Source: an uncultured archaeon
GTDB lineage: Archaea > Asgardarchaeota > Hermodarchaeia > Hermodarchaeales > Hermodarchaeaceae
Direction of reading: 5' to 3'
DNA: 64,000 nucleotides
NCBI GenBank assembly: GCA_964347045.1
Contig: CAYFXC010000004.1
Span: forward strand, 65,650 to 129,649
Below, piece after piece: positions 8,330 through 27,052 of the stretch. Under the pieces are notes generated by a model. That model was not told where the DNA came from and searched no databases. It saw nothing but the letters and a program-made list of their open reading frames with translations. Positions within the stretch are counted from its first letter, which is position 1, and the number at the start of each line of letters is the position of its first letter. The position numbers and the translations under genes are program-made.

Positions 8330-8395
8330 AGTGTAAGTCCCTCATTAGGTTGAGTATTGTCCTTACCAAAAGTAAGTCCTTTAAAAATTCTATGC

Positions 8396-8944: not shown

Positions 8945-9422
8945 GATAACACCAGCAATTCTTGGCAGTACCCTGGTTTCTATTGATTAAAAACTCATTA
9001 CTCAACCTAGAGTTTCTCGCAGCGGGAACCACATGTACTCATTTAGGTATACAAATTGCCTTCTACTACCCTTCTCGCCACAGTTTTTGGTATTTTGTTG
9101 AACGATAAGAAGTTGTTAGTCTGTGAGACGCCAATACGGCTTCATAAGATGCAAAGGCGAATGGTGCCCGTAAATCATAATCGCCTTGTCGACAGAACTT
9201 AGTTTATCCAGTGCTAACGATGCTAACGTTAATCAAAGGATACACCTAAAATTTGTGAGATACTTTGGCAATGATGAAGCTATGAAGCAACAAACAATTG
9301 TGTCATCAATCTTATTTGATACAATAATTGAGAGCAAATGATTTACTAGTAATGATTCTAAATAACAGAACAAGTTTAAAGGAAGAAGAATCTGTTGGAG
9401 AGCCTATAAGGAAGGAAGGAAG

Positions 9423-10712
9423 ATGTCTAAAAATAGGAAACAGTCTAGAACTCTCCGAAGCTGGTTGATTCTAACTACAACAATTATTGGCATCAGTGTA
9501 TTTACCATCGGGTTGTTTTTTAGCATGCTAGTTATGTTCATTGGAGTGATAATTATTAGTGTGGCTTTTTTTGTGTGGTTACAAGGGATAATTGGTCAAG
9601 CAAAACGAAAGAGAATTGGACGATTAAGATTTGATCTGTTAACGAAGAATATCAATCCCTATGATGCTCTGGAAGTGATGATTGATTATAAAGAGGCTGA
9701 TGTTGGTCGACAAGAACTGAATAGGGAACAAATTCGAGAGGCAGCGACAGTATTACAAAGTAATCGAGAACGAGATCAGAGAACAGCAACATTACGATTA
9801 CTTATGGCTGGTCCTCGAAGTGTTCCTTACATTAGAGCTAGTCTCCATAGTATGGATGCAGAAGATATTGAAAAAAGCCTGGTAACACTACGATTTTTTG
9901 GGGAAGATGCTTCCTCAGTTGTTGAACCAGTTACAGAACTTTTGAGCAATGAGCTAGCTGAAATAAGAGGTCATTCTGCCCTTCTTCTCGGAAGAATTGG
10001 TTCGGCTGCAAACCCCGCTGTCCCAATGCTAATTTCGCTTCTCCAAGATTCTGATCCATCAGTGGCTCGTGATGCAGCACTAGCCATAGGCATGATTGGT
10101 TTTAAATCCGAAGAAGCCATAAAGGGATTAAAATCCGCACAAGAACGAGATGATCCACAACTCCAACTTTTTAGCAAGATTGGTTTGGTAAAACTAGGCG
10201 AATATTCTGAGGAGATTGTTGATGACTTGATTAAAGCCGTTAACGACCGAGATCCGATGAACGTTATTTTTGCCATACAAACATTAGGAGAACTAGGTAA
10301 TGCCGCGAAGAAAGCTGAACCAATTCTCCTTCGGTTAGCAACTCATCGTCATCCAGCATTACGTTTAGTTGTAGCTCAAGCGCTGCATAGAATTAAATCA
10401 GCACCTGCCCCAATCGCCGAGGCATTAGTTCGAAATTTACCCCTGCGAAAAGCGGAACCATTTATTCGACGAGACAGTTTCAATCTTTTACAGCAGGTCA
10501 TTAAGGATGTTCCAGAAGTTATTCCAATTCTGACTAAACAACTATCAAATCGTGATCCAGTGACAAGAATAATGGCAGCCAGACTTTTGGGGGAATTCGG
10601 AGAGGAAGCGAAGGAAGCTGCATCTGCTCTTGTGAAAATGATGGAAGATCCTCTAATGACCTGTCAATACCATGCCCGTCAAGCCCTAGAAAAAATTTCA
10701 CCAAGCAGTTAG
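9423..10712 (+). CDS. Membrane-anchored HEAT-repeat (PBS lyase-like) protein
   Basis: Two N-terminal TM helices, then repeated L..LL.D.D..VR..AA.ALG.IG units. Confidence 0.85.
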   Translation: MSKNRKQSRTLRSWLILTTTIIGISVFTIGLFFSMLVMFIGVIIISVAFFVWLQGIIGQAKRKRIGRLRFDLLTKNINPYDALEVMIDYKEADVGRQELNREQIREAATVLQSNRERDQRTATLRLLMAGPRSVPYIRASLHSMDAEDIEKSLVTLRFFGEDASSVVEPVTELLSNELAEIRGHSALLLGRIGSAANPAVPMLISLLQDSDPSVARDAALAIGMIGFKSEEAIKGLKSAQERDDPQLQLFSKIGLVKLGEYSEEIVDDLIKAVNDRDPMNVIFAIQTLGELGNAAKKAEPILLRLATHRHPALRLVVAQALHRIKSAPAPIAEALVRNLPLRKAEPFIRRDSFNLLQQVIKDVPEVIPILTKQLSNRDPVTRIMAARLLGEFGEEAKEAASALVKMMEDPLMTCQYHARQALEKISPSS

Positions 10713-10752
10713 AGTAATTGATTTGACTGGGTAATTTGAAAAATAGATTCGA

Positions 10753-10783
10753 CAAGCAGTTTGCAGTTTTTGCAAACTGCTTG
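10753..10783. terminator. Perfect 13-bp inverted repeat between convergent genes (possible bidirectional terminator)
   Basis: CAAGCAGTTTGCA-GTTTT-TGCAAACTGCTTG. Confidence 0.55.
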
Positions 10784-10821
10784 ATAGTAAATAGTTGAAT
10801 TGAATATAGGGATTCAGTGGG

Positions 10822-12141
10822 TTAACAACCATCCCATCCGAATTCGGGTTGGATTTCTGTGGTGAAACCCTCTACACGAGGATTGAGATATGTACCCCAT
10901 TTATCAATAGCGAGTTGAAGTTCCTTCATATTCTTTGGAATATCCTCGAAATTGCCATTTTGCATATATAGATCAACTGCTTGGCGCATTGCTTTTGCTC
11001 CATCAATAGAACCATTAGGATGGGCGTGTACGCCACCACCCGCTCCTAGAATGATATCAGTTCCAAGTTCATGTAGGTTCACTGGGATCATTCCTGGGTA
11101 AACGCCACCTCCAACGATAGGCCAATTAGTTTTGATATGATAGAATGGTGCACGAGAGTTAAGAGCAGAAGTTATTTCATCGAAGTAGGGCATGAATAGT
11201 TTGCCGTGGCTTGTAGGAAGGATATACATATCGCCTCCACATAACCGAACAAATTTTGCGATGGTAGGATAATTGAAACCGTGGAAGCCACGATACCACA
11301 TACCTGCACCAGCAGGATGAGCAAGAATTGGTACCTTCACTGAAGGAGCCTCTGCGACATCACGAAGTATGGTAAATCCTGTAGCAAGAAAATTTATGTG
11401 AAGGGCATTAGCGCCCATTTCCACCATTTTTTCTGCATTTTCTAAGGTGCGGTGACCATCATCAGAAATATTGATTGTATAAAGTGTCTTTTCACCAGTT
11501 TCCGATTCGGCTTTATCTAGCGCTTCCATTACGGCAGTGAGTCGATCTTCTAGAAGACAGTTACAGGGTGATTCCATGAGCTCATCGTCCTTGATAATAT
11601 CAATTCCTCCAAGAGCGCTTTCATAGCATTGCTCAGCAAAGACCTTAGCTTCCAGACCCACACAGGGTTTTATCATTGTTAGTGTCAAGGGTCGTTCTTT
11701 GGCTTTGAGTAGTTCACGAACTCCTTCAACGCCAAATTTTGGTCCTTTGAAGGGGGCTGTGAATGATTTAGGAAATTGGACATCAAGGATTCGGACGGCT
11801 GTGTTCTTAACATAGAAGATATTCCCAGCTATAGCGGCCATAAGCTGGGCTACTGAGGGGAGAAAGTTCGCCATCGGAAAACCGATTTGGGCGATGATAT
11901 TAGTGTAATTTGGTCCTGGCGTTCGATAGAAACCCAATGTCTTGCCAAGAAATTGCCGACGGACCTCATCGGTCTCACGGGGTACACGAATCCATGTACC
12001 GGTTGTTTGTTCGATAGACAGACCTTCAACAATGTGTAGTAAGTCAGTCTCTTGTGTTCGAATATGGAAGGTCGTGATAACATAATCTTCGAGATCAATA
12101 CCTTCTCGAGTTGCTAATCCTTCAGGTTCATATTTGGGCAT
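10822..12141 (-). CDS. RuBisCO-like protein (form IV RLP)
   Basis: GGIDIIKDDE carbamylation motif, EQTTGTW, GGGVHAHPNG; substitutions KPC (K177), AHPAG (R295) and VGGG (S379) argue against a true carboxylase. Confidence 0.9.
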   Translation of the reverse strand: MPKYEPEGLATREGIDLEDYVITTFHIRTQETDLLHIVEGLSIEQTTGTWIRVPRETDEVRRQFLGKTLGFYRTPGPNYTNIIAQIGFPMANFLPSVAQLMAAIAGNIFYVKNTAVRILDVQFPKSFTAPFKGPKFGVEGVRELLKAKERPLTLTMIKPCVGLEAKVFAEQCYESALGGIDIIKDDELMESPCNCLLEDRLTAVMEALDKAESETGEKTLYTINISDDGHRTLENAEKMVEMGANALHINFLATGFTILRDVAEAPSVKVPILAHPAGAGMWYRGFHGFNYPTIAKFVRLCGGDMYILPTSHGKLFMPYFDEITSALNSRAPFYHIKTNWPIVGGGVYPGMIPVNLHELGTDIILGAGGGVHAHPNGSIDGAKAMRQAVDLYMQNGNFEDIPKNMKELQLAIDKWGTYLNPRVEGFTTEIQPEFGWDGC

Positions 12142-12303
12142 ATGGGATTAAACCCCCGGTGGTTGGTATGAGAAATCTGGAAGTTCATAAAGTTTTTTGA
12201 AATTTTAACTAGAGCCTATGATACAAATCAACTTTTAAAAAAATCATAGATTGTTTTAAATAGACCATAGACCACATCGCTACAGAAAGGTGGAGGCAGA
12301 CAG

Positions 12304-12552
12304 ATGGCGAAATCATTTAAAAAAGAAAAGAAAGAAACAGCGCATTTACAGGTTCCGAAACATTCTCATTGTGAGCTATGTGGTGCACCAGTCCGTTATG
12401 GGATGGAGTATTGTAATGCGGAGCACAAAAAATTGTTTGCCAAGAATGCTAGAAATGAACGGCTGAAAAATGCGATTCCGGTAATTTTTGTAATCATTAT
12501 TGCCGCAGCATCACTTATAATTTCAATAATGATGTTTGCCCCACCCCCCTGA
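12304..12552 (+). CDS. DUF2116-family Zn-ribbon membrane protein
   Basis: PKHSHCELCG...YC...H followed by a C-terminal TM helix. Confidence 0.75.
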   Translation: MAKSFKKEKKETAHLQVPKHSHCELCGAPVRYGMEYCNAEHKKLFAKNARNERLKNAIPVIFVIIIAAASLIISIMMFAPPP

Positions 12553-12568
12553 TAAGGATTAAAAGGAT

Positions 12569-13918
12569 TCACCAGGTGGAGAGAGAAGCAACCGCACTGT
12601 CAGGAATTCGACCTTTTTCGACATCACGTAGAGCGGTATCAATGATTTCCAGTGCTCGATCAGCTTCTGATTGTGAGAGATTAAATGCAGGACAAACTCT
12701 AAGAACAGATTCGCCAAGAGTTGTAAGGATAAGACCGAGCTCACCAGCCCGCCAACAAACCTTAGAAGCTTCTAGCCGTGCAGGTTCTCGCGTCTTATGA
12801 TCTTTAACTAGATCGACTCCAATAAGCATTCCTTTACCTCTGACATCACCAATTAGGTGATGATCTCTTCTCATTTCGTCAAAGCGTTTCCGGAGGTACG
12901 CGCCCATCTTTTTTCCCTTATCAATAAGATTGTCTCTCCTGATAGTATCTATTACAGTCAATGCAACCGCGCATACAATTGGATTAGCAATTCCTGTTCC
13001 AATCGCGGAAGGAGGTTTTAGTTCATCTATTACTGAAGCGCGGCCTATGACCCCGCTCAACGGAACTCCCGCAGAAAAGCCCTTACCAAAGGCAACAAGA
13101 TCAGGGATGAGATTATATTGTTCTGATAAGAACCATGAACCGCATCGTCCACACCCAGTTTGGATCTCATCAAGTGCAAATAGCATACCATATTTTTGAC
13201 AAATTTCCTCAAGGCCTTTCAACCATTCGGGAGGTGGAAAGATATAGCCTCCATCTGATCCAACTGGTTCAGTAATAATTGCTGCAACTTCTTCTGGGGG
13301 TACGAGATGTTTTAGTACAGTTTTCAAATAGTCCAAGCATGCTAATCCGCAATGAGGATATTCTTGTTTGAAAATGCATCTGTAACAGTCTGCAAATGGA
13401 ACATGGTAAATCTCTGGGATAAATGGTCCTAAATACCGACGTTGAACCGTTGAAAAAGCACTCAAGGATAAGGCACCATATAGTGCCCCATAATATCCTT
13501 TGAGAAATGTGATGATTTTAGTACGCTTTGTTCCAACACGTGCAAGCTTTACTGTAAGATCCATTGCGGCGGCCCCAGCAAGTTGATATATTGTTCTTTT
13601 AGTGAAATCGCCAGGAGGTAACTGATTTAATTTTTCAGCAAGCTCAACAGCTAGTTCATGATACCCGTAGAGAGGTGGGTAATGAATAAGTTGATCCGCT
13701 TGTTCTTGAATAGCTTTCACTACTGCGGGATGCCGATGACCAATAGGAAGAGCAGCTGCTCCGCCTAGAAAGTCAATGTATTCATTTCCATCCTTGTCCC
13801 ATACTATAGAACCTTCAGCACGAATAGCCACTACCGGATAATATGCTAACCGGAGTGCTTGACCAATAGCGTTCTTATCACGTTTGACTATTTTCAATCC
13901 TTTCCTAACTACTCCCAT
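12569..13918 (-). CDS. Class III PLP enzyme (GABA-aminotransferase fold; possibly amino-acid racemase/epimerase subfamily)
   Basis: WDKDGNEYIDF, DEIQTGCGRCG, PDLVAFGKG (PLP Lys), GDVRGKG, CWRAGELGL; EPVGSDGG has Asp at the usual Glu position. Confidence 0.88.
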   Translation of the reverse strand: MGVVRKGLKIVKRDKNAIGQALRLAYYPVVAIRAEGSIVWDKDGNEYIDFLGGAAALPIGHRHPAVVKAIQEQADQLIHYPPLYGYHELAVELAEKLNQLPPGDFTKRTIYQLAGAAAMDLTVKLARVGTKRTKIITFLKGYYGALYGALSLSAFSTVQRRYLGPFIPEIYHVPFADCYRCIFKQEYPHCGLACLDYLKTVLKHLVPPEEVAAIITEPVGSDGGYIFPPPEWLKGLEEICQKYGMLFALDEIQTGCGRCGSWFLSEQYNLIPDLVAFGKGFSAGVPLSGVIGRASVIDELKPPSAIGTGIANPIVCAVALTVIDTIRRDNLIDKGKKMGAYLRKRFDEMRRDHHLIGDVRGKGMLIGVDLVKDHKTREPARLEASKVCWRAGELGLILTTLGESVLRVCPAFNLSQSEADRALEIIDTALRDVEKGRIPDSAVASLSTW

Positions 13919-13988
13919 TTAGATCACCTTCAGTTGAACTCTTTTTTAGGATTCAAATATCGTAATAAATTCCATTAGTAGAGGATAT

Positions 13989-15098
13989 TTAGTGTGAATC
14001 GTGGAATTCTGTACCCCAGTTATCGATAGCCAAGATGGCATCTCGAACCATCCCCGGTGAAACTGCTATTGGCATATTTCCCATCGTATCCTTAGGGTCA
14101 CAGGCTTTTTCAGCAGCAGTACTAAGGTCATCAACATTGATATCTCCAAGTTGCTTAAGAGTGATAGGAAGCCCTACTTGATGTTCCCATCTCATTATGC
14201 GCTCAATTTCTTGGGGATCACGGTTTTCTAGCACCATTTGTACTAATACACAGAACGCCACAATTTCACCATGATTAGCTTTTACTCCAGAGATAAACGT
14301 CAAACCATTATGAATAGCATGTGCTGCGGCTAAACCTGTACTTTCAGCACAAAGACTACTTAGAAGTTTGATGGATTCGAAGATTCGTTCAACATATGGA
14401 GTAACTAGTTTCTGTTCAAGGTCCTTAGCTGCTCGATATCCATAGGTGAGTAAATTATATTCACATAACTCTCCAATCCAAGGTGAAACAGCAGTAGGAC
14501 GACCAAACAAAAGACTGGAAGCATTCGGTTGAGCAACACAAGCTTTTGCTTCAATATTAGCCCCTAGTGCATCACCCATTCCCCAGACCGTAAATTTGGC
14601 TGGAGCTGTGACAAGGATTTCTGGATCAACTAAAACTAAATCTGGATTTTTAGGATAAAAGAGATATTCAAGCCATTCATGCTTCTCAGTATAAATGACA
14701 GATAAGGCGCTAGCATCAGCGTTGGTTGCACATTGTGTTGGTACACATGCAACGGGTAGTTTTAGCTTGTACGCAACTGCTTTCGCAGTATCAACAGCTA
14801 CTCCACCACCTACACCAATGATGACATCAGCTTTTTCCTTTTTTCCAATCTCACTCAGACGGTCAATTGTTGGATAAGTGGTCATTCGGACAGTATTATC
14901 TAATGCTACGATGCTGGTGTCAAACTGGTGAAGACTCTTTTCGATTCGCTTTTTCGTTATACTCAAAGCAGTTTTTCCACCCAAAATCAACGCTTGTTGG
15001 CCAATTTTACTAATATGTGCACCAAGTTCATCCAGAGAACCACGTCCCTGAACATATCGACTAGCAGACCCGAATATTTTCATTTGACTTGGTTCCAA
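13989..15098 (-). CDS. gldA: Glycerol dehydrogenase-like polyol dehydrogenase
   Basis: RYVQG, GVGGGVAVDTAK, SALSVIYT, GMGDAL, ESTGLAAAHAIHNGLT, HGEIVAF. Confidence 0.82.
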   Translation of the reverse strand: MEPSQMKIFGSASRYVQGRGSLDELGAHISKIGQQALILGGKTALSITKKRIEKSLHQFDTSIVALDNTVRMTTYPTIDRLSEIGKKEKADVIIGVGGGVAVDTAKAVAYKLKLPVACVPTQCATNADASALSVIYTEKHEWLEYLFYPKNPDLVLVDPEILVTAPAKFTVWGMGDALGANIEAKACVAQPNASSLLFGRPTAVSPWIGELCEYNLLTYGYRAAKDLEQKLVTPYVERIFESIKLLSSLCAESTGLAAAHAIHNGLTFISGVKANHGEIVAFCVLVQMVLENRDPQEIERIMRWEHQVGLPITLKQLGDINVDDLSTAAEKACDPKDTMGNMPIAVSPGMVRDAILAIDNWGTEFHDSH

Positions 15099-15230
15099 TT
15101 AATTTCACCTGGTATGATGATTTAGCGCAGTGCTTTTGGAAGCAACTTCTATAAGTAATTCACGCAAATGGAATCTTCAAGTTTTATAATTCCCATAAAC
15201 ACTTTAGACTAAAAGTAGATATTTAGACTC

Positions 15231-16607
15231 ATGACTCCAATTTGGTTTCCAAAAAATGATGAGATTTCAACTCTACTATGTGGTTCTTATCGAACTGATG
15301 TAAATGGTTGGATCCGTATACATCTTTGTGGTGACAACAGACAAATGGGATTCCAACACGGATATTGGCTCGCTCACGAGATTCAGGCAAATGTTAAACA
15401 GACTGGTATGTTTCTGGACAAGGCAGAAAATTACCCTTGGAAGAAGTTCCGATCTGATGCAGAAAAGATATGTTGGCACATGACACCAGAGAGTCTTCAA
15501 GAAGAGATTCAAGGTGTTGAGGCAGGAATGCGACTCCGAGGTATCAAGGATACCTCTTGGAAAGACATTCTCGCAATAAACGCATATGGTGACACACTTT
15601 CTTGTCATTATGCAAAGGAGCACGAAAAAAAACGAGATACCAGTAGAAAAAGTGGTCATTGTAGTGCCTTCATCGCAACCGGAAAAGCAACAAAAGATAG
15701 ACGAATCGTTCTTTGTCACAACACTTGGTTTTCCTATATTATTGGAACGACCTATAACATCATGATGAGCCTGAGTCCCTCTGAAGGTCATAAAATGTTT
15801 ATTCATACATGGCCTGGAGCGATAGGTGGTGCAACAATTGATTGGGATATGAATGCAGCAGGGATTATGTGTGCAGAGACAACAATTACTGGAGCAAGTA
15901 AATTCAAACTAGATGAAATTCCCTATTTTGTTCGAGGTCGATTGGCAATTCAGTTTGCAGATTCAATTGATGAGTGGATGAAAATGATGATTGAAGGTAA
16001 TAATGGGGGATGGGCTAACGCCTATTTAGTTGGAGATGCTAAAACAGATGAAATTGGATGGTTAGAACTGGGAATCTTTGAGCACGCCATTCGTCGAACT
16101 CGAAACGGGTATTTTGTAGGTGCCAATTGGGCGTTGGATGATGCTGTAAAATCAGAATGTGTTGGAGTAAGTTTTGATGAAAAAGCCGCTCATTCCTGTG
16201 CATCAAGAACCCATCGTCTCCTTCAACTGATGGAAAAATTTGATGGGAAAATAGATATTAGTATCGCAAAACAGATAATCAGCGACCACTATGATGTATC
16301 CTTAGATAAGGACCAACCTTCGGCGAATACTATTTGTGGTCATACAGAATTTGATGAAAGGGGATTGAAAGAATGGAAATGTGGTCCTTTTGAACCATTT
16401 GGGGCAACGGATGCGAAAGTTGTTACGAGCACCTTAAATGAAAATGGCTCATGGTGGGCACACTGGGGTCCTGCGTGTAACATTCATTTTGATTCAAAGG
16501 AGTTTTTTTCAAAACACCCAGAATATGGATGGCAGGAACCATATACTCGTAATATTACACCCTATCCTTGGACACTGTTTAGTGCCGATGAGAATTGGAA
16601 GAGATAG
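15231..16607 (+). CDS. C45-family / phospholipase B-like Ntn hydrolase
   Basis: GFQHGY, autoproteolytic GH-CSAFIATG, HNTW, ETTI, NNGGWAN, GATDAKV. Confidence 0.8.
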   Translation: MTPIWFPKNDEISTLLCGSYRTDVNGWIRIHLCGDNRQMGFQHGYWLAHEIQANVKQTGMFLDKAENYPWKKFRSDAEKICWHMTPESLQEEIQGVEAGMRLRGIKDTSWKDILAINAYGDTLSCHYAKEHEKKRDTSRKSGHCSAFIATGKATKDRRIVLCHNTWFSYIIGTTYNIMMSLSPSEGHKMFIHTWPGAIGGATIDWDMNAAGIMCAETTITGASKFKLDEIPYFVRGRLAIQFADSIDEWMKMMIEGNNGGWANAYLVGDAKTDEIGWLELGIFEHAIRRTRNGYFVGANWALDDAVKSECVGVSFDEKAAHSCASRTHRLLQLMEKFDGKIDISIAKQIISDHYDVSLDKDQPSANTICGHTEFDERGLKEWKCGPFEPFGATDAKVVTSTLNENGSWWAHWGPACNIHFDSKEFFSKHPEYGWQEPYTRNITPYPWTLFSADENWKR

Positions 16608-16654
16608 CGGCAAATGCATTATTCGGAGAAGAATTGGTTCAATAGAATGAGCGA

Positions 16655-17614
16655 CTATCCTTGAGTTAACATGAAATCTTTGACCTTTCTTCCTTCAATA
16701 TCAATGATAGCGCCGCGAAGGACTCCTTCAAGATATTCACTACCAGGATTGATAGCCAATGTTTTCCCGATTTTTTGAAACCCTCTTGATTCATGGATAT
16801 GTCCATGCAAACTAAGCAAAGGATGATATTTTTCTATTGCCGCCCGAACGGCTTTACTCCCCACGGGATGATCTTCAATTCGACCTCCTTTAGTTTGCAC
16901 CTGAAGTTCTCCTTTGATCGTTTCTTTCAATACAGGACAGAGGTCTAAAGTTGAATCAAATGGAGGAACATGCATATTAAAGATTGATAACTCAGGATTC
17001 TTCAACTGGGAGGTCAATGCTTCAATGAGTTCCTCTAATTTATCTTCTGGAAGGTCTCGTGGACATTCCCAAGGCGTCACATTTCCATGCCCAATAGAGA
17101 TCATTTCGTGTTCGTTGTCAATCATCACAACTTTCCCATCAGGATTCACCACGTAGTCAGAAGAGTTTAATGTGGCGTCAATATCAAGTCGATCATCATT
17201 ACCTGGACATACAAACATCTTAATTTCTGATTCACCAAGTCTTTCCTCTGCCAACCTCAGCCATCGGTCTAGTTCATTTTGCATTACTTTACTGAATAGT
17301 TTATCAACCGCGGCTTTATTCTCGTGTAATTTCTGGATTTCATTCGTAGATGCGACATATGGATAATACCCACTATTTCTAATAGTTTGAAGAAGTTGTT
17401 CATACTCTTCTTGCGAACTAATCTCGTATGTCTTATTCATGAACGTTGTCGAATATTGATCACCATCTTGTTTAATCGGAATGATTGCCTTACCAGTGAT
17501 ATCTCCACCCATAATCACCACATTGGCTTTGTAAAAAGGTCCTGCGTTAACGAATTTCCTCCAACAACGTTCTGAACCATGAATATCTGTCGTGAAAAAA
17601 ATACGCGTTTTCAT
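16655..17614 (-). CDS. Calcineurin-like metallophosphoesterase (Icc/COG2129-like)
   Basis: DIHGS, GGDITGK, PGNDD, HVPP, LHGHIHES, NPGSEY. Confidence 0.9.
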   Translation of the reverse strand: MKTRIFFTTDIHGSERCWRKFVNAGPFYKANVVIMGGDITGKAIIPIKQDGDQYSTTFMNKTYEISSQEEYEQLLQTIRNSGYYPYVASTNEIQKLHENKAAVDKLFSKVMQNELDRWLRLAEERLGESEIKMFVCPGNDDRLDIDATLNSSDYVVNPDGKVVMIDNEHEMISIGHGNVTPWECPRDLPEDKLEELIEALTSQLKNPELSIFNMHVPPFDSTLDLCPVLKETIKGELQVQTKGGRIEDHPVGSKAVRAAIEKYHPLLSLHGHIHESRGFQKIGKTLAINPGSEYLEGVLRGAIIDIEGRKVKDFMLTQG

Positions 17615-17748
17615 TTACATAAATCACCACTAGAATTCTCAGCTTTAGATCGGAATTCGATGAGCAACAAGAGAATCTTGGAGCGATAGCTGACTCTGTT
17701 GATTAAAAGATTTTCGAATCCGTAAACATTTGAGAAAGGCTAAAGAGT

Positions 17749-18822
17749 TCATTCAATAACTCCTGTGTTTCGGGCAAGTCGGATAGCCGCCTCTTCAGTG
17801 AGACCATTTTCTCCTAGAATAGTATACCGTTGTGGATTGATTTTATGCGCTATTTCAAGAGCTTTGATAACATATTTTGACTCAATGCCGAGCTGTTTTG
17901 CTGTGGTTGGAGCACGAACAGCTGATAACGCATCACGAATTTCCTGCCAGTTAATTCCATGAAGATATGCCATCATAATCGTTCCCAAGCCAGATTGTTC
18001 TCCATGCAGAGCAGGCTCGGGTGCGAGTTGATCAAGTGCATGACTGAACTTATGTTCAGCACCACTTGAAGGCCTACTTGAGCCGGCGATTCCCATTGCA
18101 ATACCACTGGCAATAAGGGCTTCAAGAACAAGTCGTGCACTTTGCACATCATTGGGTTTTATCATTTGAGAATTATTGATAATAATCCTAGCGGACATAA
18201 GCGAAAGAGAAGCCGCATAGTCTCCATAATATTCATAACCCAAAGTATTAGCAAGCCTCCAATCACGTACAGCAGTGATGTTGGCAATTAAATCACCACA
18301 ACCAGCTGAAGTAAAACGGAACGGAGCCTCAGCTACAACCTTTGTATCAGCTACAATAGCTATCGGCGAATGACCCTGTATAGAAACAGATTTCCCCTTT
18401 TCTTTAATGGATGCTCGAGGACTTGAAAGTCCATCATGAGATGCTATCGTGGGTACACTAATGAAAGGCCGATTTTCACGAGCAGAACTTAACTTTGCCG
18501 TATCAATAACTGAACCTCCACCACACCCAACAATAAGCCCTGCCTTGTGTTTTTGAATAATTTCTTGGGCTTCTTCAACGGCATTGGATGTTGCCCCCTT
18601 AATCATTAGAATCTCAACATCAAATTTATCCTCTGTTAAGGCGTTTAAAGCCCGTTTGCCCACAATGCGAAACACATCCTTATCTGTAACCAGAATTACA
18701 TGTCTCGTCTCTACAACCTGATGCACAACTTCCCCCAACAGATCAACCACATTCGGTCCAATAACAACATGTCCAGGTAATTGCATACGATGAGCATTAT
18801 TCTCAACTGTCACCAGGTTCAC
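17749..18822 (-). CDS. egsA: sn-glycerol-1-phosphate dehydrogenase
   Basis: GGGSVIDTAK, PTIASHDG.SSPRAS, SSRPSSGAEHKFSHALD, LHGEQ, RYTILG. Confidence 0.93.
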   Translation of the reverse strand: MNLVTVENNAHRMQLPGHVVIGPNVVDLLGEVVHQVVETRHVILVTDKDVFRIVGKRALNALTEDKFDVEILMIKGATSNAVEEAQEIIQKHKAGLIVGCGGGSVIDTAKLSSARENRPFISVPTIASHDGLSSPRASIKEKGKSVSIQGHSPIAIVADTKVVAEAPFRFTSAGCGDLIANITAVRDWRLANTLGYEYYGDYAASLSLMSARIIINNSQMIKPNDVQSARLVLEALIASGIAMGIAGSSRPSSGAEHKFSHALDQLAPEPALHGEQSGLGTIMMAYLHGINWQEIRDALSAVRAPTTAKQLGIESKYVIKALEIAHKINPQRYTILGENGLTEEAAIRLARNTGVIE

Positions 18823-18849
18823 CCTTCTAATCCATCGAAAAATTCCAAC

Positions 18850-19240
18850 TAGAATGCTAATAATCTGTCATAGCGATCTTATGAGTAAAAATAACTTGCT
18901 CAAAATTTAGTACCAATCGTTTATTGAAGTTTCTTATTTAAAACCACCTGTTGAAAAATTTAATCAAATAATAATCGGAACCGTCTATAATATTTAATGA
19001 CAATTTATTTTTATAAAACATTCAAGTGAATTATATAAAAAAAATACTAAAAATTATTAAAATAAAAAAATACCATTTGTATATATCCATTGTAACACTA
19101 AAAGATTAAGAACTCCCTGAATATCTTGCAATTTCTTTTTTTTGAGTAACGGTTTTATACAAAGTGGGTACGAAGGAGTGGCGTTTGGTATACTGTTAGA
19201 AACCAGACAACACCCATAAAAAAATCATTCATGAGTTGAA
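18850..19240. promoter_or_regulatory. Long, very AT-rich divergent promoter region between egsA and the APC permease operon
   Basis: A/T tracts and several TATA-like hexamers (for example TTTATA near 19154); exact elements not resolvable. Confidence 0.45.
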
Positions 19241-19246
19241 TGAACA

Positions 19247-20851
19247 ATGGGAGAAGAAATCTTCGTTCGAAAAGCTTCCGGTCTTGTTCGCAATGTCAGT
19301 GCTTGGGACGCTCTAGTTATGTGCATTCTGATTCCAGGTATCTTTTGGCCTTGGGTTTATCAGATGTGGTCAGTGGGTCTTCATGGACCAGGAGCATGGA
19401 TGCCTCTTTCATCGCTTATTGCTATCGCTTTCATGATCCCGAACGCCATCATGTACGTTATGTTTAGCGTCGCGATGCCTCGATCAGGTGGCGATTATGT
19501 CTGGGTAAGTCGAGTCATCCATCCCGCCGTTGGATTTGCAGTAAACTGGTATCTCACCTTGATCCTTCTTTCGTGGGCAGGACCCTTCGCATCATGGATT
19601 GTTGAATGGGGCATTTCACCCATCTGGCTTACCTGGGGAACGATGACAGGCGATCCAACAGGATTAGCTATTTTCAACGTTTTGAACATAAACGAGGTAA
19701 AACTAGCGATAGGCACAGTGATAATCATCTTTATGGCCGTCCTCTCCTTCCTTGGATCCAAGTGGGAATTCCGAGCAGAATGGCTAGCCATTATCATGGG
19801 CTACATAGGTCTAATGGTATGGTCTGGCGTAATGATTGCTGGAGCCCCCCTAATTGATGCCCGTATGCAGCTATTAACTGGAGGGGTCTTGTCGTTCTCA
19901 AGCATAGTGTCTACAGCTTCAGCGGCAGGCTGGGTCGTCTCGGCAGCGTTACCGGTTGGAATTGGAGTGACATTTATGGCGACAACATATACAACGTTAA
20001 ACTTCCTTGGATATACAAACTCTGCTTATATTGCTGGAGAAATCAAGGGAGTAACGCGGTCGCATATTATCGCCATTATTGGCGCACTCTTCATCTTCGG
20101 TTTCACTGCCTTTGGCCTATATGCGGTCTATAACTATTCCTTTGGTCCTGTTGTGATCAATAGCATAGCCTATCTAGACGTAGCTGGAGATCCTCTTTGG
20201 TGGAACCTATTCCCAATAGAACCGTTAGGGAACATTCTATCAATGTTTGCCACAACGATTCCCTTTATTCCGCCGTTTCTGACGGTTTGTTTCGCTTTTG
20301 GCTGTTTTGGGGCTGCACTTGGTCTATTCATTTCAAGTGTCCGTAACATTTTCGCTTGGTCCTTTGACCGAGTACTTCCCAGTTCTCTTTCACTGGTAGA
20401 CAAGCGATTCAGGGCACCATGGGTTGCTATTCTAGTGACATTCATCATCACTATGATAATGAATATACTCTACATCTACACCACAGCACTCGATTACTTC
20501 ACCTACAGCATTCTTGCCTGGTGGATTGCGATGGTCATTGTGGGCATCGCAGGAATTATCTTTCCATGGCGTAGAAAGGATATCTTCGAACTTGCTCCAG
20601 ACTTTGCTAAGAAGAAAATTGCAGGTATTCCACTGATCTCGTTATTCTCATTGATTTCGATTCCAATCTCAGTTTTCATTGGATATGCTTCCGTATCTCC
20701 TGCGGTAGCAGGTGCAATTGACTGGTCATTTATGCTAGCAGTCGTTGTGACCTTCATTATCGCACCCATTATCTACTATATCAGTTACTTCTACCACAAG
20801 GCTAAGGGCATTACAATCAGTATGGCACAGGCGGAGATTCCACCTGAGTAA
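19247..20851 (+). CDS. APC-superfamily amino acid/amine permease (archaeal type)
   Basis: FVRKASGLVR N-terminus, MPRSGGDYVWVSR, AYIAGEIK, RNIFAWSFDR, about 12 TM segments, EIPPE end. Confidence 0.92.
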   Translation: MGEEIFVRKASGLVRNVSAWDALVMCILIPGIFWPWVYQMWSVGLHGPGAWMPLSSLIAIAFMIPNAIMYVMFSVAMPRSGGDYVWVSRVIHPAVGFAVNWYLTLILLSWAGPFASWIVEWGISPIWLTWGTMTGDPTGLAIFNVLNINEVKLAIGTVIIIFMAVLSFLGSKWEFRAEWLAIIMGYIGLMVWSGVMIAGAPLIDARMQLLTGGVLSFSSIVSTASAAGWVVSAALPVGIGVTFMATTYTTLNFLGYTNSAYIAGEIKGVTRSHIIAIIGALFIFGFTAFGLYAVYNYSFGPVVINSIAYLDVAGDPLWWNLFPIEPLGNILSMFATTIPFIPPFLTVCFAFGCFGAALGLFISSVRNIFAWSFDRVLPSSLSLVDKRFRAPWVAILVTFIITMIMNILYIYTTALDYFTYSILAWWIAMVIVGIAGIIFPWRRKDIFELAPDFAKKKIAGIPLISLFSLISIPISVFIGYASVSPAVAGAIDWSFMLAVVVTFIIAPIIYYISYFYHKAKGITISMAQAEIPPE

Positions 20852-20861
20852 TCGGGTTGAA

Positions 20862-20886
20862 TCCCTCCCCCCCCTTTCTTTTTTTA
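20862..20886 (+). terminator. Pyrimidine/oligo-T tract after the permease
   Basis: CCCTCCCCCCCTTTCTTTTTTT, typical of archaeal terminators. Confidence 0.5.
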
Positions 20887-21016
20887 GCCAATATTCAACA
20901 CACTTCTAATTGTACTGTCGACAACCACTAGTATTAATTACACAAATCGACACGAACATCCAGAAGCTTGATTATACGTAAACTCAAAAAGATAATTACG
21001 CCTAGGAAACAAGTAG

Positions 21017-22111
21017 GTGCTCACTGTGTTTGACCCATCGTATCTAGTTCGTGAGTGTGTGAAAAACTCAACTGGTTATAATGTTAGTCATTTCATACGA
21101 GCATGGTCTAACAGAGATCTGCTCCGTATGATGTCCAATGAAAACCCAATTCAGCCTTCAAAGGCGGTTATTGAGGCTATGATTCAAGAGATAGAAGAAA
21201 CGAATCTTTATCCGGCCCCTCCTTCAGGACTTTGCGAACGGTTTGCTCAGCATGTGAAGATGAAACCTGAAAATATCGCTGTTTGTTCAGGTTCCATGGA
21301 GGTTATTGATGTTTTAATTCGGACATTTGTTGAACCGGGCCAAGAAGTAATAATTCATTCACCTACGTTTTCTGCTTATGAAAAGTTCGCAAATCTTCAT
21401 GGTGCTAAGCTTATCTCCGTTAAAATGGATCCTCCGAATTTCGATTATCCTTTTGAAGAGATGGAGAGAAATATTACTAGGAAAACAAAAATTGTGTTTG
21501 TTTGTACGCCTAATAACCCTACAGGTAATTATTGTGAAAAAAGAGATATTAAGAAATTAGCAAAAAATAATGTAATTATTGCTGTTGATGAAGCTTATGC
21601 AGAGTTTATCAATCAAAATATGACGGATCTTATTGCTTCGTACCGAAATGTTGTTTTCATTCGAACATTATCAAAGGCATGGGGTCTGGCTGGTTTACGA
21701 ATTGGCTATCTGATGGCTGATGAAAACGTGATAGAGTATTTCAATCGGGTAAGACAACCCTTTCACATTTCAATGCCAATACAACGGGGAGTAGAAGCAG
21801 CCTTTGATGATCCTAATTATCTCCGTGAGCGGGTTCAAGCAAATAACCAAGGCGTGAATTACATTCGAAGAGAGCTAGACAAAATTCCTGGGATAACTAC
21901 GTTCCCATCCAGTGGGAATTTTGTGCTAATTAATGCTGGTGATACAGGGCATGAAACTCAAGAGATAATTGAAAAATTATTAGGGATGGGAATTTTTGCA
22001 AGGGATATGTCCAGTCACCGACTTGGAGGCGCTTATTTCCGCGTTACCGTTAGTTCAGAAGCGAATAACCAACGATTTATTGAAGCGATAAAGAAAATTC
22101 TCAAATCATAA
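21017..22111 (+). CDS. Histidinol-phosphate aminotransferase-like PLP enzyme (class I/II)
   Basis: SNENP, PNNPTG, VDEAYAEF, RTLSKAWGLAGLRIGY. Confidence 0.88.
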   Translation: MLTVFDPSYLVRECVKNSTGYNVSHFIRAWSNRDLLRMMSNENPIQPSKAVIEAMIQEIEETNLYPAPPSGLCERFAQHVKMKPENIAVCSGSMEVIDVLIRTFVEPGQEVIIHSPTFSAYEKFANLHGAKLISVKMDPPNFDYPFEEMERNITRKTKIVFVCTPNNPTGNYCEKRDIKKLAKNNVIIAVDEAYAEFINQNMTDLIASYRNVVFIRTLSKAWGLAGLRIGYLMADENVIEYFNRVRQPFHISMPIQRGVEAAFDDPNYLRERVQANNQGVNYIRRELDKIPGITTFPSSGNFVLINAGDTGHETQEIIEKLLGMGIFARDMSSHRLGGAYFRVTVSSEANNQRFIEAIKKILKS

Positions 22112-22143
22112 GATACTCGTTTCCTTCAAAGGGAGTAGCAATT

Positions 22144-23676
22144 ATGAGTGAAAAAGATGGTTACATAATAGCGCATGATTTTGGAACCAGTGGTGATAAG
22201 GCTGTTTTAACAGATCTGAAAGGTAACGTACTGGCTTCAGAATACAGAGAATATCCTCTCCTTTATCCGAAAGCACATTGGGTGGAGCAAGATCCAAAAG
22301 ATTGGTGGAGAGCATTTTGTGAAACTACACAGGCAGTGGCAAAGAAAGCAAAATCTCCAGATGAAATTCTAGCATTGGCTCCGTCTGCTCAAATGATAAC
22401 TATCATGCCTGTCGACCAAAAAGGAAAACCTTTACGTAATTCAATTAATTGGCTTGATTTACGTGCTACTAAAGAAGGCGATTGGCTTCAACAATTTGTG
22501 GATGAGATTTACCCAGTTCTTGGAATGGCTCCTTCTGTAAAAGACATTGTCAGTCGAATCCTATGGATAAAAGAAAATGAGCCCCAAATTTATGCTAAAA
22601 CTCACAAATTCATGGATTGTAAAGATTATCTCGAATTGAAACTTACAGGAAATTTTGTGACAGATTGGAGCAATGCTTCACTTTATGGACTGTTTAATAT
22701 AAACAAGCATAAATGGTCTGAACGAGTGTGTGAAATCACAGGGATTTCACCTGAGAAACTTCCTGACGCCTATCCCTCCACGGAAATAATAGGCGAGGTT
22801 ACTCAAAAAGCAGCCAAAGAAGTTGGTGTGCCTACGGGAACTCCTGTAATTGCAACAGGAGGCGATGTTGCGGTTGCGGCTATTGGGTCAGGATCCGTCA
22901 AGGAGGGGGATAGTCATGTTTGCATTGGAACAGCTACGTGGATAGGAGTAACAACAAAAGAAGTCATAATAGATCCACAAAAACGATACCTCACTATGTG
23001 CTCGGGAGATCCTAAAAAGAAAATTCTCATGGGTGAAATGGAAACAGGAGGAGCCGCGTTACGCTGGCTACGAGACATGTTGAGAAGAACCCTTAATTTA
23101 CCTAATCCCGAAGCGCTTTCATATTCGACCATGGATAAATGGGCAACCAAAGTGCCTCCTGGCTCTGATCAATTATTATTTACGCCGTGGATGTCAGGAG
23201 AGCGTTCTCCCCTTAACGACCATAATGCTCGAGGAACCTATTTGGGACTTAAGCTTGGCCATACAGCCGGTCATTTAATTCGTGCGATTCTTGAGGGAGT
23301 TGCTTTTAACATCAGATGGATCCTTGATTCAGTCGAGGAAACCGCTCCCTTCCACATTCAAGATATTTCTGGCGTTGGTGGAGGAGCAGCAAGTAAACTA
23401 TGGATGCAGATTATATCAAATGTTACTGGTCGAAAAATACGAATTGTAAAGGAACCCCTAAACGCGGGTTCAATCGGAGCATCCTTAACTGCAGCTGTTG
23501 CATTAGATGTGTTCCCAGATTTCGAATCACTGTTAGAAGTAATTCCAATCAAAACCCAAATACAATGTAAACAGGATGCATATTACATATATTCACAACT
23601 CTTTCCCATCTATAAAGAAGCCTATAAACAATTATCTCCAATCTTTAACAGGCTCGCAGAATTAGATAAACATTAG
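22144..23676 (+). CDS. FGGY-family carbohydrate kinase (xylulokinase-like)
   Basis: DFGTSGDKA, VEQDP..WW, WLDLR, GGD, GERSP, RAILEGVAF, GGGA. Confidence 0.92.
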   Translation: MSEKDGYIIAHDFGTSGDKAVLTDLKGNVLASEYREYPLLYPKAHWVEQDPKDWWRAFCETTQAVAKKAKSPDEILALAPSAQMITIMPVDQKGKPLRNSINWLDLRATKEGDWLQQFVDEIYPVLGMAPSVKDIVSRILWIKENEPQIYAKTHKFMDCKDYLELKLTGNFVTDWSNASLYGLFNINKHKWSERVCEITGISPEKLPDAYPSTEIIGEVTQKAAKEVGVPTGTPVIATGGDVAVAAIGSGSVKEGDSHVCIGTATWIGVTTKEVIIDPQKRYLTMCSGDPKKKILMGEMETGGAALRWLRDMLRRTLNLPNPEALSYSTMDKWATKVPPGSDQLLFTPWMSGERSPLNDHNARGTYLGLKLGHTAGHLIRAILEGVAFNIRWILDSVEETAPFHIQDISGVGGGAASKLWMQIISNVTGRKIRIVKEPLNAGSIGASLTAAVALDVFPDFESLLEVIPIKTQIQCKQDAYYIYSQLFPIYKEAYKQLSPIFNRLAELDKH

Positions 23677-23731
23677 GATATAAAACATAGTAAAAACATT
23701 TGTACCAAAAATATGAGGATGATATATTTCG

Positions 23732-24598
23732 ATGAATGAATCTCCAAAAGCCCCGATGTCTGATAAAGAATTTCTGAAAGAAGCCATCCACATCGTCGAT
23801 CAAGCCGAGGAATACGGCGTTACAATTCGCATTTTAGGAGCTTTAGCTATCAGAATGCAAACGCCAAATAAAATTGGTTTACATCATACACTAGATAGGC
23901 TTGGAGAAGGAAAGATGAGCTTCACGGATATTGACTTAATTGGTCCAAAGTCTCAAAGACGAAAAATCGAGAATTTCTTTGAGAAAGAATTAGGATTCGA
24001 AGTTGATCGGTATGCATTACTTGCAGCGAAAGACCGCTACATTTACCATCATCCTCAAAAGCCATATCATGTAGATGTTTTTTTAGACTGTTTAGACTTC
24101 AGCCATAAAATTCAATTCGCACATAAAAATGACTTTCATCGATTGAGTCTTGATAAACCCACAATAACCTTAGCAGATCTTGTTTTAGAAAAGACTCAAA
24201 TTCATGATATTAATGAAAAAGATATCAAAGACCTCATCACATTATTTGCTGGTCATGAAGTGGGGACAACAGATAAGGATCCAAAAACAATCAATGAAAT
24301 CTACATAGCCGAAGTCCTGTCCGATGATTGGGGATTTTGGTATGATGCAACGGCGAATTTAAGAAAGGCATTGGAGTTCTGTAAGAAATATTGTGCAGAA
24401 GAACTCATTGAAAAAAATGAAAGTAATACTGTAGTTGCTAAAATCGAAGAATTATTGAAAACTATTGATGAGCACCCAAAGACGAAAAACTGGGAAAAAC
24501 GTGCAAAAAAGGGAACAAGTAAAAAATGGTGGAAGGATGTCGAAGAATCGGATCGGGGAGCAGACCAACACACCATAAAAAGAGATAGTTGGTTCTAA
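23732..24598 (+). CDS. Uncharacterised nucleotidyltransferase-fold-like protein (paralogue of 47523-48311)
   Basis: RILGALA...TDIDL...HVDVFLD pattern (hG[GS]..DxD..D), KTQIHDINEKDIKD, DWGFWYD. Confidence 0.7.
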   Translation: MNESPKAPMSDKEFLKEAIHIVDQAEEYGVTIRILGALAIRMQTPNKIGLHHTLDRLGEGKMSFTDIDLIGPKSQRRKIENFFEKELGFEVDRYALLAAKDRYIYHHPQKPYHVDVFLDCLDFSHKIQFAHKNDFHRLSLDKPTITLADLVLEKTQIHDINEKDIKDLITLFAGHEVGTTDKDPKTINEIYIAEVLSDDWGFWYDATANLRKALEFCKKYCAEELIEKNESNTVVAKIEELLKTIDEHPKTKNWEKRAKKGTSKKWWKDVEESDRGADQHTIKRDSWF

Positions 24599-24619
24599 CC
24601 ACAAAGAGTCCAATTTTGT

Positions 24620-25305
24620 AAGGTTAGTCTTTTTTTCAACTTTGCGTTTGATTTCACCAAATTTAACAAGTGCGCATATGGCTTTTACGGCTCTCGCAGG
24701 AGTAGGAAGGGCAGGAAATCCCACATTTTCAAGAAGTTCTCCACCTTTCATAGTGTACCGTCCACCAGCCGTACAAGCTACGAGTGGTTTGTTATATTTA
24801 CGAATAATCGCAACAAGTCGATCTACAATATCGAGATCTAGTAAAGCTATTTGTATCATTACAACTACAATGGCTGCATCATTATGATCTAATCCTAAAA
24901 GTGCATCTAGAGCAATTTGATACCTTTTCGCATCTATTTCATCTGTGAGGTCAATAGGATTATCTACACTGCAATGGCCGGAAACGCCTCGCATAGAAGC
25001 CTTTTCGTGTCTTCAGGAGGTTAAGGGACGGACAAGCCAAGTTCCCTACAGGTATCCACGGTCACCACACCAGTGCCACCAAATGTCCGCCACGATGAGT
25101 ATGCAATTACCTTTAGTAATTGGTTGATCAGCCAAGGTCTCTGTCATTTCAAATCCATCTTCGAAGTCGGTAGCAATGATTATTCCGGTCTGATGAAAAG
25201 CAGAATCATAAAGCCGGGCATCACCAGCCAAAGCCGCCGTATGACTTGCAACTGCTGCCGATCCTCGTTTAGATCGATTTGATTTTTTTACTATTACTAG
25301 TTGGC
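24620..25305 (-). pseudogene. acdA: Degraded acetate/acyl-CoA ligase (ADP-forming) alpha subunit, C-terminal half
   Basis: ASHTAALAGD...YDSAFHQTGII...QP..KG in one frame and NPIDLT...KPLVAC..GG...PTPARAV.A..AL in another; frameshifts, no N-terminal half. Confidence 0.8.
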
Positions 25306-25318
25306 TAACTCAAAGAAT

Positions 25319-25849
25319 CTAGGCATCGATAAGAATCCGAAGGAGTTCGACGCTGAAGTACCCTTTTGCACGGAGAACGTCTAAAGGCGTGTGGAATTTA
25401 ATTGTTACAAATGAAGCCACACCTGTGGCACCAACAATTTTTTTGTAAACCTTCTTAAAATCGGCTAGGGTTGAAGTCATGGCTAAAACTCCGGCAGCTT
25501 CGTCAGATATTCGAATGAAGACATCCGATTGGACACTCCTTTCCAGTGATAATCCCATAGGTTGAACACCTTCCTTCTTTAGAAGAACCGGTTCACCTCC
25601 AACAATAAGCTGTAGCCGAGTATCATTCAATGCCTTCGTTTTTGCACTAATGTCAGGAGTGGCTAAAAGGTCTCCGAGCCGCTGAATAAAAGCATTAACC
25701 GGATCAGTCAACGAAACTAGCGTACTTTCCGGTAATGTTGACTTCTCAGGTGGAAGAGGAGTTTTGATGTCAGGCGTCAAATCTTCCTCTTTGGGTTCTT
25801 CAGGCGATTTTTCAATTTCATCCTGTTTTCTTCGTTTAAACCAGCGCAT
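25319..25849 (-). CDS. Hypothetical protein, possible SCP2-like fold
   Basis: Disordered N-terminus, then LQLIVGGE...SDVFIRISDEAA pattern reminiscent of SCP2 domains. Confidence 0.55.
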   Translation of the reverse strand: MRWFKRRKQDEIEKSPEEPKEEDLTPDIKTPLPPEKSTLPESTLVSLTDPVNAFIQRLGDLLATPDISAKTKALNDTRLQLIVGGEPVLLKKEGVQPMGLSLERSVQSDVFIRISDEAAGVLAMTSTLADFKKVYKKIVGATGVASFVTIKFHTPLDVLRAKGYFSVELLRILIDA

Positions 25850-26027
25850 TGTTTTTCACTCCAACCAGACTTTGAATGTGTTGTTGCATAGTTGGAAGGC
25901 ATTAGAAGCCATAAAAGCATACCGAAGCAAATTCAGGAAATGATGCCGAAGAATAGAAAAACGTAGAATCACGCAAAAGGAGGTGCTTTATATCAGCTCT
26001 TATCGCAATAGCCAATGGTGACTAGCT

Positions 26028-26324: not shown

Positions 26325-26332
26325 TATCTCAC

Positions 26333-27052
<720 letters not shown>

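Follow-up and report, generated by a model that had tools for sequence, protein, structure and literature searches.

RuBisCO-like proteins (RLPs) catalyze enolase, isomerase, decarboxylase/transcarboxylase and oxygenase reactions, and few of them have been characterized (PMC10176493). The known RLPs act on 2-keto-1-phosphates that carry a 3-hydroxyl group (PMC6302742, PMC10176493). The present report concerns RLP-A, a divergent form IV RLP encoded at positions 10822-12141 (minus strand) of a 64,000-nucleotide stretch of archaeal DNA (contig CAYFXC010000004.1, positions 65,650 to 129,649; hereafter the window), and the accessory gene island on which its gene lies. The RLP of Rhodospirillum rubrum is a 5-methylthio-D-ribulose-1-phosphate 1,3-isomerase (PMC6302742); its substrate is a ketose-1-phosphate, and a reaction of this type is proposed here for RLP-A. 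Two other RLPs, OiaX and OiaC, belong to the D-apiose pathway, as summarized in a later article (Carter et al. 2018, via PMC10176493). There, too, the RLP gene lies in a cluster for catabolism alongside genes for a kinase and dehydrogenases, and the pathway leads to central metabolites. The D-apiose clusters differ from the island in having no amine-handling enzymes, and their kinase belongs to a family other than that of the island kinase (DUF1537).

The best solved matches of RLP-A are the MtnW/YkrW 2,3-diketo-5-methylthiopentyl-1-phosphate enolases of Bacillus subtilis (2zvi), Geobacillus kaustophilus (2oek) and Alicyclobacillus (4nas), with E values of 4e-66 to 6e-62 and about 227 bits. 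MtnW and RLP-A have in common the fold, the KDDE carbamyl-lysine/Mg triad, K175 and the loss of the second phosphate site, a pattern that goes with a single-phosphate substrate. They differ in their partner genes, and RLP-A has an Asn (GNIF) aligned to the Lys (GKLS) of the MtnW structures 4nas and 2zvi. This Lys of MtnW, at the position of RuBisCO Asn123, is reportedly the catalytic general base. The nearest relatives of RLP-A (41-47% identical) form a clade of RLPs from anaerobic archaea and bacteria whose genes are adjacent to an FGGY kinase gene and a gene for an amine-handling enzyme. RLP-A shares with this kinase-linked clade the change K177C and the loss of R295 and H327, yet it branches outside the clade core on a long stem. 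A literature search found no publication that describes an RLP together with an FGGY kinase and aminotransferases.

The source genome (G000) is a metagenome-assembled genome of the Promethearchaeota (Asgard archaea) that is 89% complete; the contigs of it that are mentioned here are labelled C2, C3, C4, C5, C6, C10 and C27, and the comparison set consists of 15 genomes of the genus. RLP-A is encoded on a variable island of about 16.3 kb (9026-25301) between a DUF2085 gene and the orf176/tpiA backbone. The products of the island are a HEAT-repeat protein, RLP-A, a small DUF2116 protein, a class III pyridoxal phosphate (PLP) enzyme (AT3), a glycerol-dehydrogenase family enzyme (GldA), a C45-family protein, a metallophosphoesterase, a glycerol-1-phosphate (G1P) dehydrogenase (egsA), an APC-superfamily permease, a HisC-like aminotransferase, an FGGY kinase and a 288-aa protein. 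RLP-A, the FGGY kinase, the HisC-like aminotransferase and AT3, with the APC permease, are proposed to form the core of the island and to break down a small amino-alcohol or amino-polyol. The probability of this reading is put at about 0.45. Four features are new here. The RLP copy is private to the genus and deeply diverged; it resides on a 16-kb island that carries extra genes and has been exchanged laterally; a single genome has three parallel pairs of kinase and amine-handling enzyme; and the histidine pathway is missing.

Exchange of the island within the genus

The RLP-A block is present in 8 of the 15 genomes of the genus. A DNA search of these genomes identified an empty site in six relatives (G003, G001, G004, G008, G013 and G010), in which the sequence of window positions 8000-9025 directly abuts that of 25302-27997. 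The stretch from about 9026 to 25301 is therefore an insertion, and tpiA (26333-27019, minus strand), which lies outside the island, is a backbone gene. The genes of the block, of which the HEAT gene is the first and the 288-aa gene the last, are in identical order in G004, G008, G010, G013 and G014. Three insertion sites have been identified in the genus. The island of G000 lies between the DUF2085 gene and tpiA, that of G014 has an ADP-forming acyl-CoA synthetase gene on one side and a thiolase gene on the other, and those of G004, G008 and G013 have a SelR gene and a gene for an NADH-dehydrogenase subunit nearby.

The borders of the island in G000 carry gene fragments. One is a pseudogene fragment of the ADP-forming acyl-CoA synthetase alpha subunit (24646-25267, minus strand), which contains two in-frame stops and was assigned by the Pfam match of the intact gene; its identity is 79% to the intact gene next to the G014 island versus 68% to the copy that G000 itself carries on contig C3. 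The other is a 5' remnant of a thiolase gene (9138-9300), assigned by Pfam, with DNA matches beside the AT3 gene or the thiolase gene in G006, G002 and G005. The remnant is a short multi-copy DNA match to the 5' part or the upstream region of the thiolase gene, which borders the island in G014 and, in G006 and G002, the AT3 gene that occurs there alone. The synthetase fragment and the thiolase remnant are scars of an earlier, G014-type site that the G000 island still bears.

The DNA of G000 and G014 is 83-85% identical within the island versus 71% in the backbone. This difference and the scars at the flanks indicate that the block was exchanged laterally within the genus. The stretch at about 9.0-25.3 kb is thus an accessory island that is traded and relocated as an intact block inside one Asgard genus. 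No tRNA gene was found in the window and no recombinase gene at the borders of the island; terminal repeats were not searched for systematically.

The RLP-A protein

Three genes of the RuBisCO family are present in G000. They encode a form III RuBisCO (contig C2) in which every catalytic residue is present, the RLP that is common among Asgard archaea (RLP-B, C6:5018-6277) and RLP-A. A gene encoding a GNAT-type acetyltransferase (C6:6529-7377), a further amine-modifying partner, lies directly upstream of the RLP-B gene. RLP-A matches the RuBisCO large-chain domains PF00016 (161 bits) and PF02788 (37 bits), and its family placement was examined by NCBIfam cut-offs and alignments with PDB structures. 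Its identity within the genus is 93-97%, and among 5.8 billion proteins nothing from outside the genus exceeds 47%.

RLP-A is below the cut-off of all curated models of RLPs and RuBisCO. These include the form III model TIGR03326 (257 bits, cut-off 497), the MtnW models NF007095 (290 bits, cut-off 409) and TIGR03332 (244 bits, cut-off 514) and the OiaX model NF042437 (178 bits, cut-off 700). The residues E60, T65, W66, N123, T173, K175, K201, D203 and E204, which include the KDDE carbamyl-lysine/Mg motif, are kept, as are H294, K334 and the phosphate loop (G381/G403/G404). With the complete form III RuBisCO of G000 as the reference, RLP-A shows the changes K177C, R295P, H327I and S379G and has lost H298. 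From this pattern of kept and lost residues, RLP-A is predicted to be still able to enolize a bound keto-sugar phosphate, with a single phosphate site. The possibility that RLP-A is an MtnW enolase was ruled out by its scores below the cut-offs of both MtnW models, the Asn in place of Lys and the failure to find MtnB and acireductone dioxygenase (ARD) in the 89% complete G000. RLP-A thus belongs to no characterized methionine-salvage family; membership in one would have spoken against the original prediction.

The stem branch of RLP-A in the trees is about 1.3 substitutions per site long, with almost no divergence within the genus. The long stem, the small divergence within the genus and the changes in the motifs of RLP-A together are what one would expect if the copy had acquired a different function and had subsequently been fixed. 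Selection on the island was examined by comparing G000 with G004. Synonymous sites are saturated (proportion of synonymous differences, pS, about 0.7), which makes the ratio of non-synonymous to synonymous divergence (dN/dS) unreliable, and dN alone was used. The proportion of non-synonymous differences (pN) is far below pS in every island gene, and all island genes are under purifying selection. RLP-A is the most constrained of them, with the lowest dN of the island (0.031). It is followed by the APC permease (0.055), GldA (0.071) and the class III PLP enzyme (0.096), by the DUF2116 protein, the kinase, the HisC-like enzyme, the C45 protein, the phosphoesterase and the 288-aa protein (0.12-0.16), and by the egsA copy (0.20) and the HEAT protein (0.23).

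Recurrence of the kinase, amine-handling enzymes and RLP

The genes around 76 loci of RLP relatives were clustered within 10-kb flanks. An FGGY kinase gene is found beside the RLP gene in 15 of these loci, which belong to Chloroflexota, Bathyarchaeia, Methanofastidiosia and Thor-type Asgards. A class III aminotransferase is encoded in 9-10 of the 15 and a saccharopine-dehydrogenase-like protein in 4, whereas the outer flanks vary. The loci of the relatives carry MFS or APC transporters. In three Asgard genomes (G045, G054 and G062), genes for a class III aminotransferase, a HisC-like aminotransferase, an FGGY kinase and an RLP form a tight operon on one strand. One RLP of this operon type is encoded at L122:6611-7870. 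Like this four-gene operon, the island has a kinase of the linked subfamily together with HisC-like and class III PLP genes, and an amine-handling enzyme is encoded directly beside the kinase. The four families recur as a unit, and the island has one member of each. A weakly GNAT-like 266-aa gene (L118:9135-9932) lies between the kinase and RLP genes in a Chloroflexota operon. Contig L056 (DATKTW010000037.1), labelled Candidatus Nanopelagicaceae (Actinomycetota), has a Loki-type RLP neighbourhood that is nearly identical to that of Asgard contigs and is probably mis-binned.

The FGGY kinase of the island (22144-23676, plus strand) belongs to the RLP-linked subfamily. It groups with kinases encoded next to RLPs in a clade with a support of 99 in the Shimodaira-Hasegawa-like approximate likelihood ratio test (SH-aLRT), and two further paralogues of G000 belong to the same clade. 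Outside the genus, the kinases closest to it share 43-45% identity with it and are encoded in the operons of G045, G054 and G062. Pairs of HisC-like and FGGY genes are also found without an RLP gene in G025, G029 and G039. G000 itself contains two additional pairs of kinase and amine-handling enzyme, whose kinases are the two paralogues of the RLP-linked subfamily. One (C10:71468-74210) consists of a HisC-like gene followed by a kinase gene among peptidase and glutamine-synthetase genes, and the other (C27:8932-11827) of a saccharopine-dehydrogenase-like gene followed by a kinase gene. Beside another FGGY kinase paralogue, upstream of the window at C4:52997-54860, lies a class II aldolase/MtnB-like gene whose score (66 bits) is below the cut-off.

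The HisC-like aminotransferase (21017-22111, plus strand) is encoded 32 bp upstream of the kinase. Two genes of G000 pass the HisC model, and each is followed by an FGGY kinase gene. The island enzyme resembles HisC in its score (TIGR01141, 311 bits, cut-off 277) and in its motifs, since it keeps NENP, SK and the two C-terminal Arg motifs, and its nearest solved relatives are all HisC. It is unlike HisC in its accessory island setting, in its pairing with a kinase and in the absence of imidazoleglycerol-phosphate dehydratase (IGPD) and HisD, for which no match was found in the 89% complete genome of G000 and which were both found in 14 of 14 control genomes. Because the histidine pathway is not detectable, the HisC-like enzymes probably act on another substrate; as far as the sequences indicate, they would interconvert another 2-amino-1-phosphate and its 2-keto-1-phosphate, with the phosphate supplied by the kinase. 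The G000 organism may be a histidine auxotroph. The tree of the island HisC-like enzyme is an unresolved polytomy.

The class III PLP enzyme AT3 (12569-13918, minus strand) was identified by a match of 336 bits, and its role is the least certain. The APC-superfamily permease (19247-20851, plus strand; AA_permease_2, 78 bits) heads a four-gene unit on the plus strand and is 90-94% identical between islands.

Proposed pathway

The first step of the proposed pathway would be the import of a small amino-polyol or amino-alcohol by the APC permease. In the second step, the FGGY kinase would phosphorylate a terminal hydroxyl group. The HisC-like enzyme would then convert the 2-amino-1-phosphate to the 2-keto-1-phosphate, which is the histidinol-phosphate reaction in reverse, and in the fourth step RLP-A may enolize and isomerize the ketose-1-phosphate-like product to a central sugar phosphate. 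The order permease, kinase, HisC-like enzyme and RLP is inferred from the type of substrate on which known RLPs act, namely 2-keto-1-phosphates with a 3-hydroxyl group. A more specific proposal, advanced here tentatively and with considerable doubt, is that RLP-A and the wider kinase-linked clade catalyze a reaction new for RLPs. This reaction would be the isomerization or epimerization of a 2-keto-1-phosphate derived from a 2-amino-polyol or amino-diol via an FGGY kinase and a HisC-type transaminase.

The original prediction had proposed a route that imports, phosphorylates, deaminates and oxidizes an amino-polyol or amino-sugar-like compound and reaches triose phosphate through the RLP. The part of it that concerns an amine compound is a reasonable reading, as the kinase, the aminotransferase and the RLP recur together. 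The link to tpiA, the role given to egsA and the membership of GldA, the C45 protein, the phosphoesterase and the nucleotidyltransferase-like protein in the conserved module were not supported. The adjacency of tpiA is specific to G000, where it is a backbone gene, and the island lies elsewhere in the relatives; egsA is a second copy that has been lost from two islands; and the proposed end point, dihydroxyacetone phosphate (DHAP), stays purely conjectural.

Additional genes of the island

All genes named in the original prediction were recovered, at the positions given for them, by the listing of open reading frames and by profile searches. The gene set itself has to be redrawn, as the HEAT gene and the DUF2116 gene also belong to the island, tpiA lies outside it, and strand and spacing split the island into about seven transcription units, divergent and convergent, with RLP-A transcribed alone. 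The HEAT-repeat protein (9423-10712, plus strand; HEAT_2, 97 bits) is the product of the first gene in every copy of the island and is 66-80% identical across the copies. Its gene is convergent with the RLP-A gene, and a perfect 13-bp inverted repeat with a 5-nt loop (10753-10783) lies between the two. This hairpin has a single exact match in the window and is probably a terminator shared by the HEAT and RLP-A genes. The gene encoding the small DUF2116 zinc-ribbon protein (12304-12552, plus strand; PF09889, 28.5 bits) is divergent from the RLP-A gene and is kept in all island copies.

The GldA gene (13989-15098, minus strand; NF006941, 364 bits, cut-off 336) lies upstream of the AT3 gene on the same strand and is the sole copy in G000. 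A C45-family Ntn autoproteolytic hydrolase/acyltransferase proenzyme (15231-16607, plus strand) was identified by NF040521 (115 bits, cut-off 85), and its Pfam match is to the phospholipase-B family. The calcineurin-like metallophosphoesterase (16655-17614, minus strand) is a weak match (Metallophos, 28 bits, cut-off 21.5) for which no informative solved relative was found. The egsA gene (17749-18822, minus strand; NF002022, 477 bits, cut-off 413) encodes a second G1P dehydrogenase that is 67% identical to the housekeeping copy (C5:134953-136002). The islands of G008 and G013 have lost this gene, which is a dispensable paralogue. Beside the HEAT gene of the islands of G004, G008 and G013 lies a gene encoding a paralogue of glycerophosphodiester phosphodiesterase (GDPD) (L024:4920-5630, L027:3001-3705 and L028:5329-6063, respectively), which is 35-43% identical to the backbone copy and is missing from the islands of G000 and G014.

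The last gene of the island encodes the 288-aa protein (23732-24598, plus strand), which matches no Pfam or NCBIfam family. Its nearest clusters in the protein atlas are nucleotidyltransferases, and the G..DxD..D motifs are present. The fold matches found with Foldseek are all Pol-beta-type nucleotidyltransferases at E values of 0.0075 or higher, none at 0.001, for a model with a predicted local distance difference test score (pLDDT) of 63. The protein is probably a nucleotidyltransferase of the Pol-beta fold, as far as the model can indicate; the earlier label of nucleotidyltransferase-like thus agrees with the atlas neighbours and the motifs, and it lacks a family match and has weak fold evidence. 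A paralogue that is 32-34% identical is encoded elsewhere in the window (47457-48311, plus strand).

Five of the products are additions specific to this lineage, namely GldA, the G1P dehydrogenase copy, the C45 protein, the phosphoesterase and the nucleotidyltransferase-like protein. Through polyol oxidation, deacylation and dephosphorylation they may broaden the range of substrates.

Evidence against the pathway and alternative explanations

Several observations weigh against the proposed pathway. The RLP-A gene is not next to the kinase gene in one operon, as it is in the kinase-linked clade, but lies 10 kb away on the other strand as a monocistronic gene, and it travels with extra genes that are absent elsewhere. 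None of GldA, the C45 protein, the phosphoesterase, egsA and the 288-aa protein was seen beside the module in the RLP-relative loci and the operon genomes. Of the 140 columns conserved in its nearest clade, 39 are different in RLP-A, which may have another activity; the differences include three motif swaps adjacent to the active site (HMD to HPA, NN to LT and PSGG to VGGG). A tree in which RLP-A is sister to the operon-type RLPs was rejected by the approximately unbiased (AU) test (p = 0.0115), with long-branch effects being possible. AT3 of the island is just 32-35% identical to the operon-type class III aminotransferase, and its nearest solved relatives are amino-acid racemases and epimerases, archaeal racemases most of all. 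A search of the island promoters for a common operator yielded only AT-rich 9-12-mers, which were judged to be chance matches. The lack of the histidine genes is itself not proven, as G000 is 89% complete.

Of the other explanations, the one that survives best is a patchwork island, on which unrelated accessory genes do no more than travel together, with a function of RLP-A unconnected to the kinase and the aminotransferases, and it is considered unlikely. The division into divergent and convergent transcription units is consistent with such a patchwork, as are the occurrence of AT3 without the island in three genomes (G006, G002 and G012), the loss of egsA from two islands and the branching of RLP-A outside the kinase-linked RLPs. 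The relatives of the C45 protein in other Asgards also have unrelated neighbours, with none of the island genes nearby. A patchwork accounts poorly for a full gene order that has survived at least two relocations and for the purifying selection on all genes, and chance would be unlikely to bring together a member from every one of the four operon families. Co-occurrence in other genomes, whose lack would have spoken against the original prediction, is found for the kinase and the aminotransferases, with FGGY kinases in 15 of 76 RLP loci and the three Asgard four-gene operons, and not for GldA, the C45 protein, the phosphoesterase and the nucleotidyltransferase-like protein.

A second explanation, for which the odds are poor, places RLP-A in the salvage of S-adenosylmethionine by-products. 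RLP-A would isomerize 5-methylthio- or 5-deoxy-ribulose-1-phosphate, the kinase would supply the 1-phosphate and the aminotransferase would regenerate methionine from the keto acid. The MtnW enolases are the nearest solved relatives of RLP-A, and an MtnA-type isomerase of G000 (C10:20502-21509) is above the cut-off, so a ketose-1-phosphate can be made. The aminotransferase genes that adjoin mtnW in Bacillus also count in favour of salvage. Isomerization is, moreover, among the published RLP reactions (PMC6302742, PMC10176493). Other steps of salvage were not recovered from the 89% complete G000, in which the best MtnB match reaches 66 bits (cut-off 137) and ARD (MtnD) has no match, and no salvage gene lies in or beside the island, as the original prediction had stated. 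What recurs beside the relatives is a permease together with amine-handling enzymes that stand in for one another (class III aminotransferase, HisC-like, saccharopine-dehydrogenase-like and GNAT), and not enzymes of sulfur or nucleoside metabolism. Residence on an accessory island found in just half of the genus would be odd for a housekeeping step.

It is improbable that the island serves to scavenge glycerophosphodiesters or lipid head groups. The phosphoesterase would in that case free glycerol phosphate and an amino-alcohol, the G1P dehydrogenase copy and GldA would lead to DHAP, and the kinase, the aminotransferase and the RLP would handle the amino-alcohol. GldA, the G1P dehydrogenase paralogue and the phosphoesterase do occur together on the island, the GDPD paralogue lies directly beside it in three genomes, and the C45 protein matches the phospholipase-B family. 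The G1P dehydrogenase copy is, however, dispensable and has the highest dN after the HEAT protein, the GDPD paralogue is missing from two islands including that of G000, and none of GldA, G1P dehydrogenase, phosphoesterase and GDPD recurs with RLPs elsewhere.

HisC aminates its substrate in histidine synthesis. A pathway in the biosynthetic direction, in which a ketose would be phosphorylated, the RLP would isomerize it and the HisC-like enzyme would aminate it to an amino-polyol phosphate (a solute or head-group precursor), with the phosphoesterase removing the phosphate or the nucleotidyltransferase-like enzyme activating the product, has little likelihood, as a permease heads the operon, the relatives carry MFS or APC transporters, and the patchy accessory distribution suits nutrient use better.

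Implications

The more specific proposal of a reaction new for RLPs, if true, would define an oxygen-independent route for the breakdown of amino-alcohols (serinol-, amino-tetritol- or sphingoid-type), which would be widespread in sediment archaea and bacteria. Members of this Asgard genus would pass the route to one another on a mobile island that includes a neofunctionalized copy of the enzyme. G000 is an unusually clean natural experiment, as it combines a genuine form III RuBisCO and the RLP common among Asgards with a third, private copy that diverged fast and is now strongly constrained. The genome also has three paralogous pairs of kinase and amine-handling enzyme, and sister genomes with and without the island allow comparison. 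Each newly found RLP reaction has informed the evolution of RuBisCO chemistry. The island indicates, in addition, that Asgard archaea swap whole metabolic blocks within a genus without recognizable mobile-element genes.

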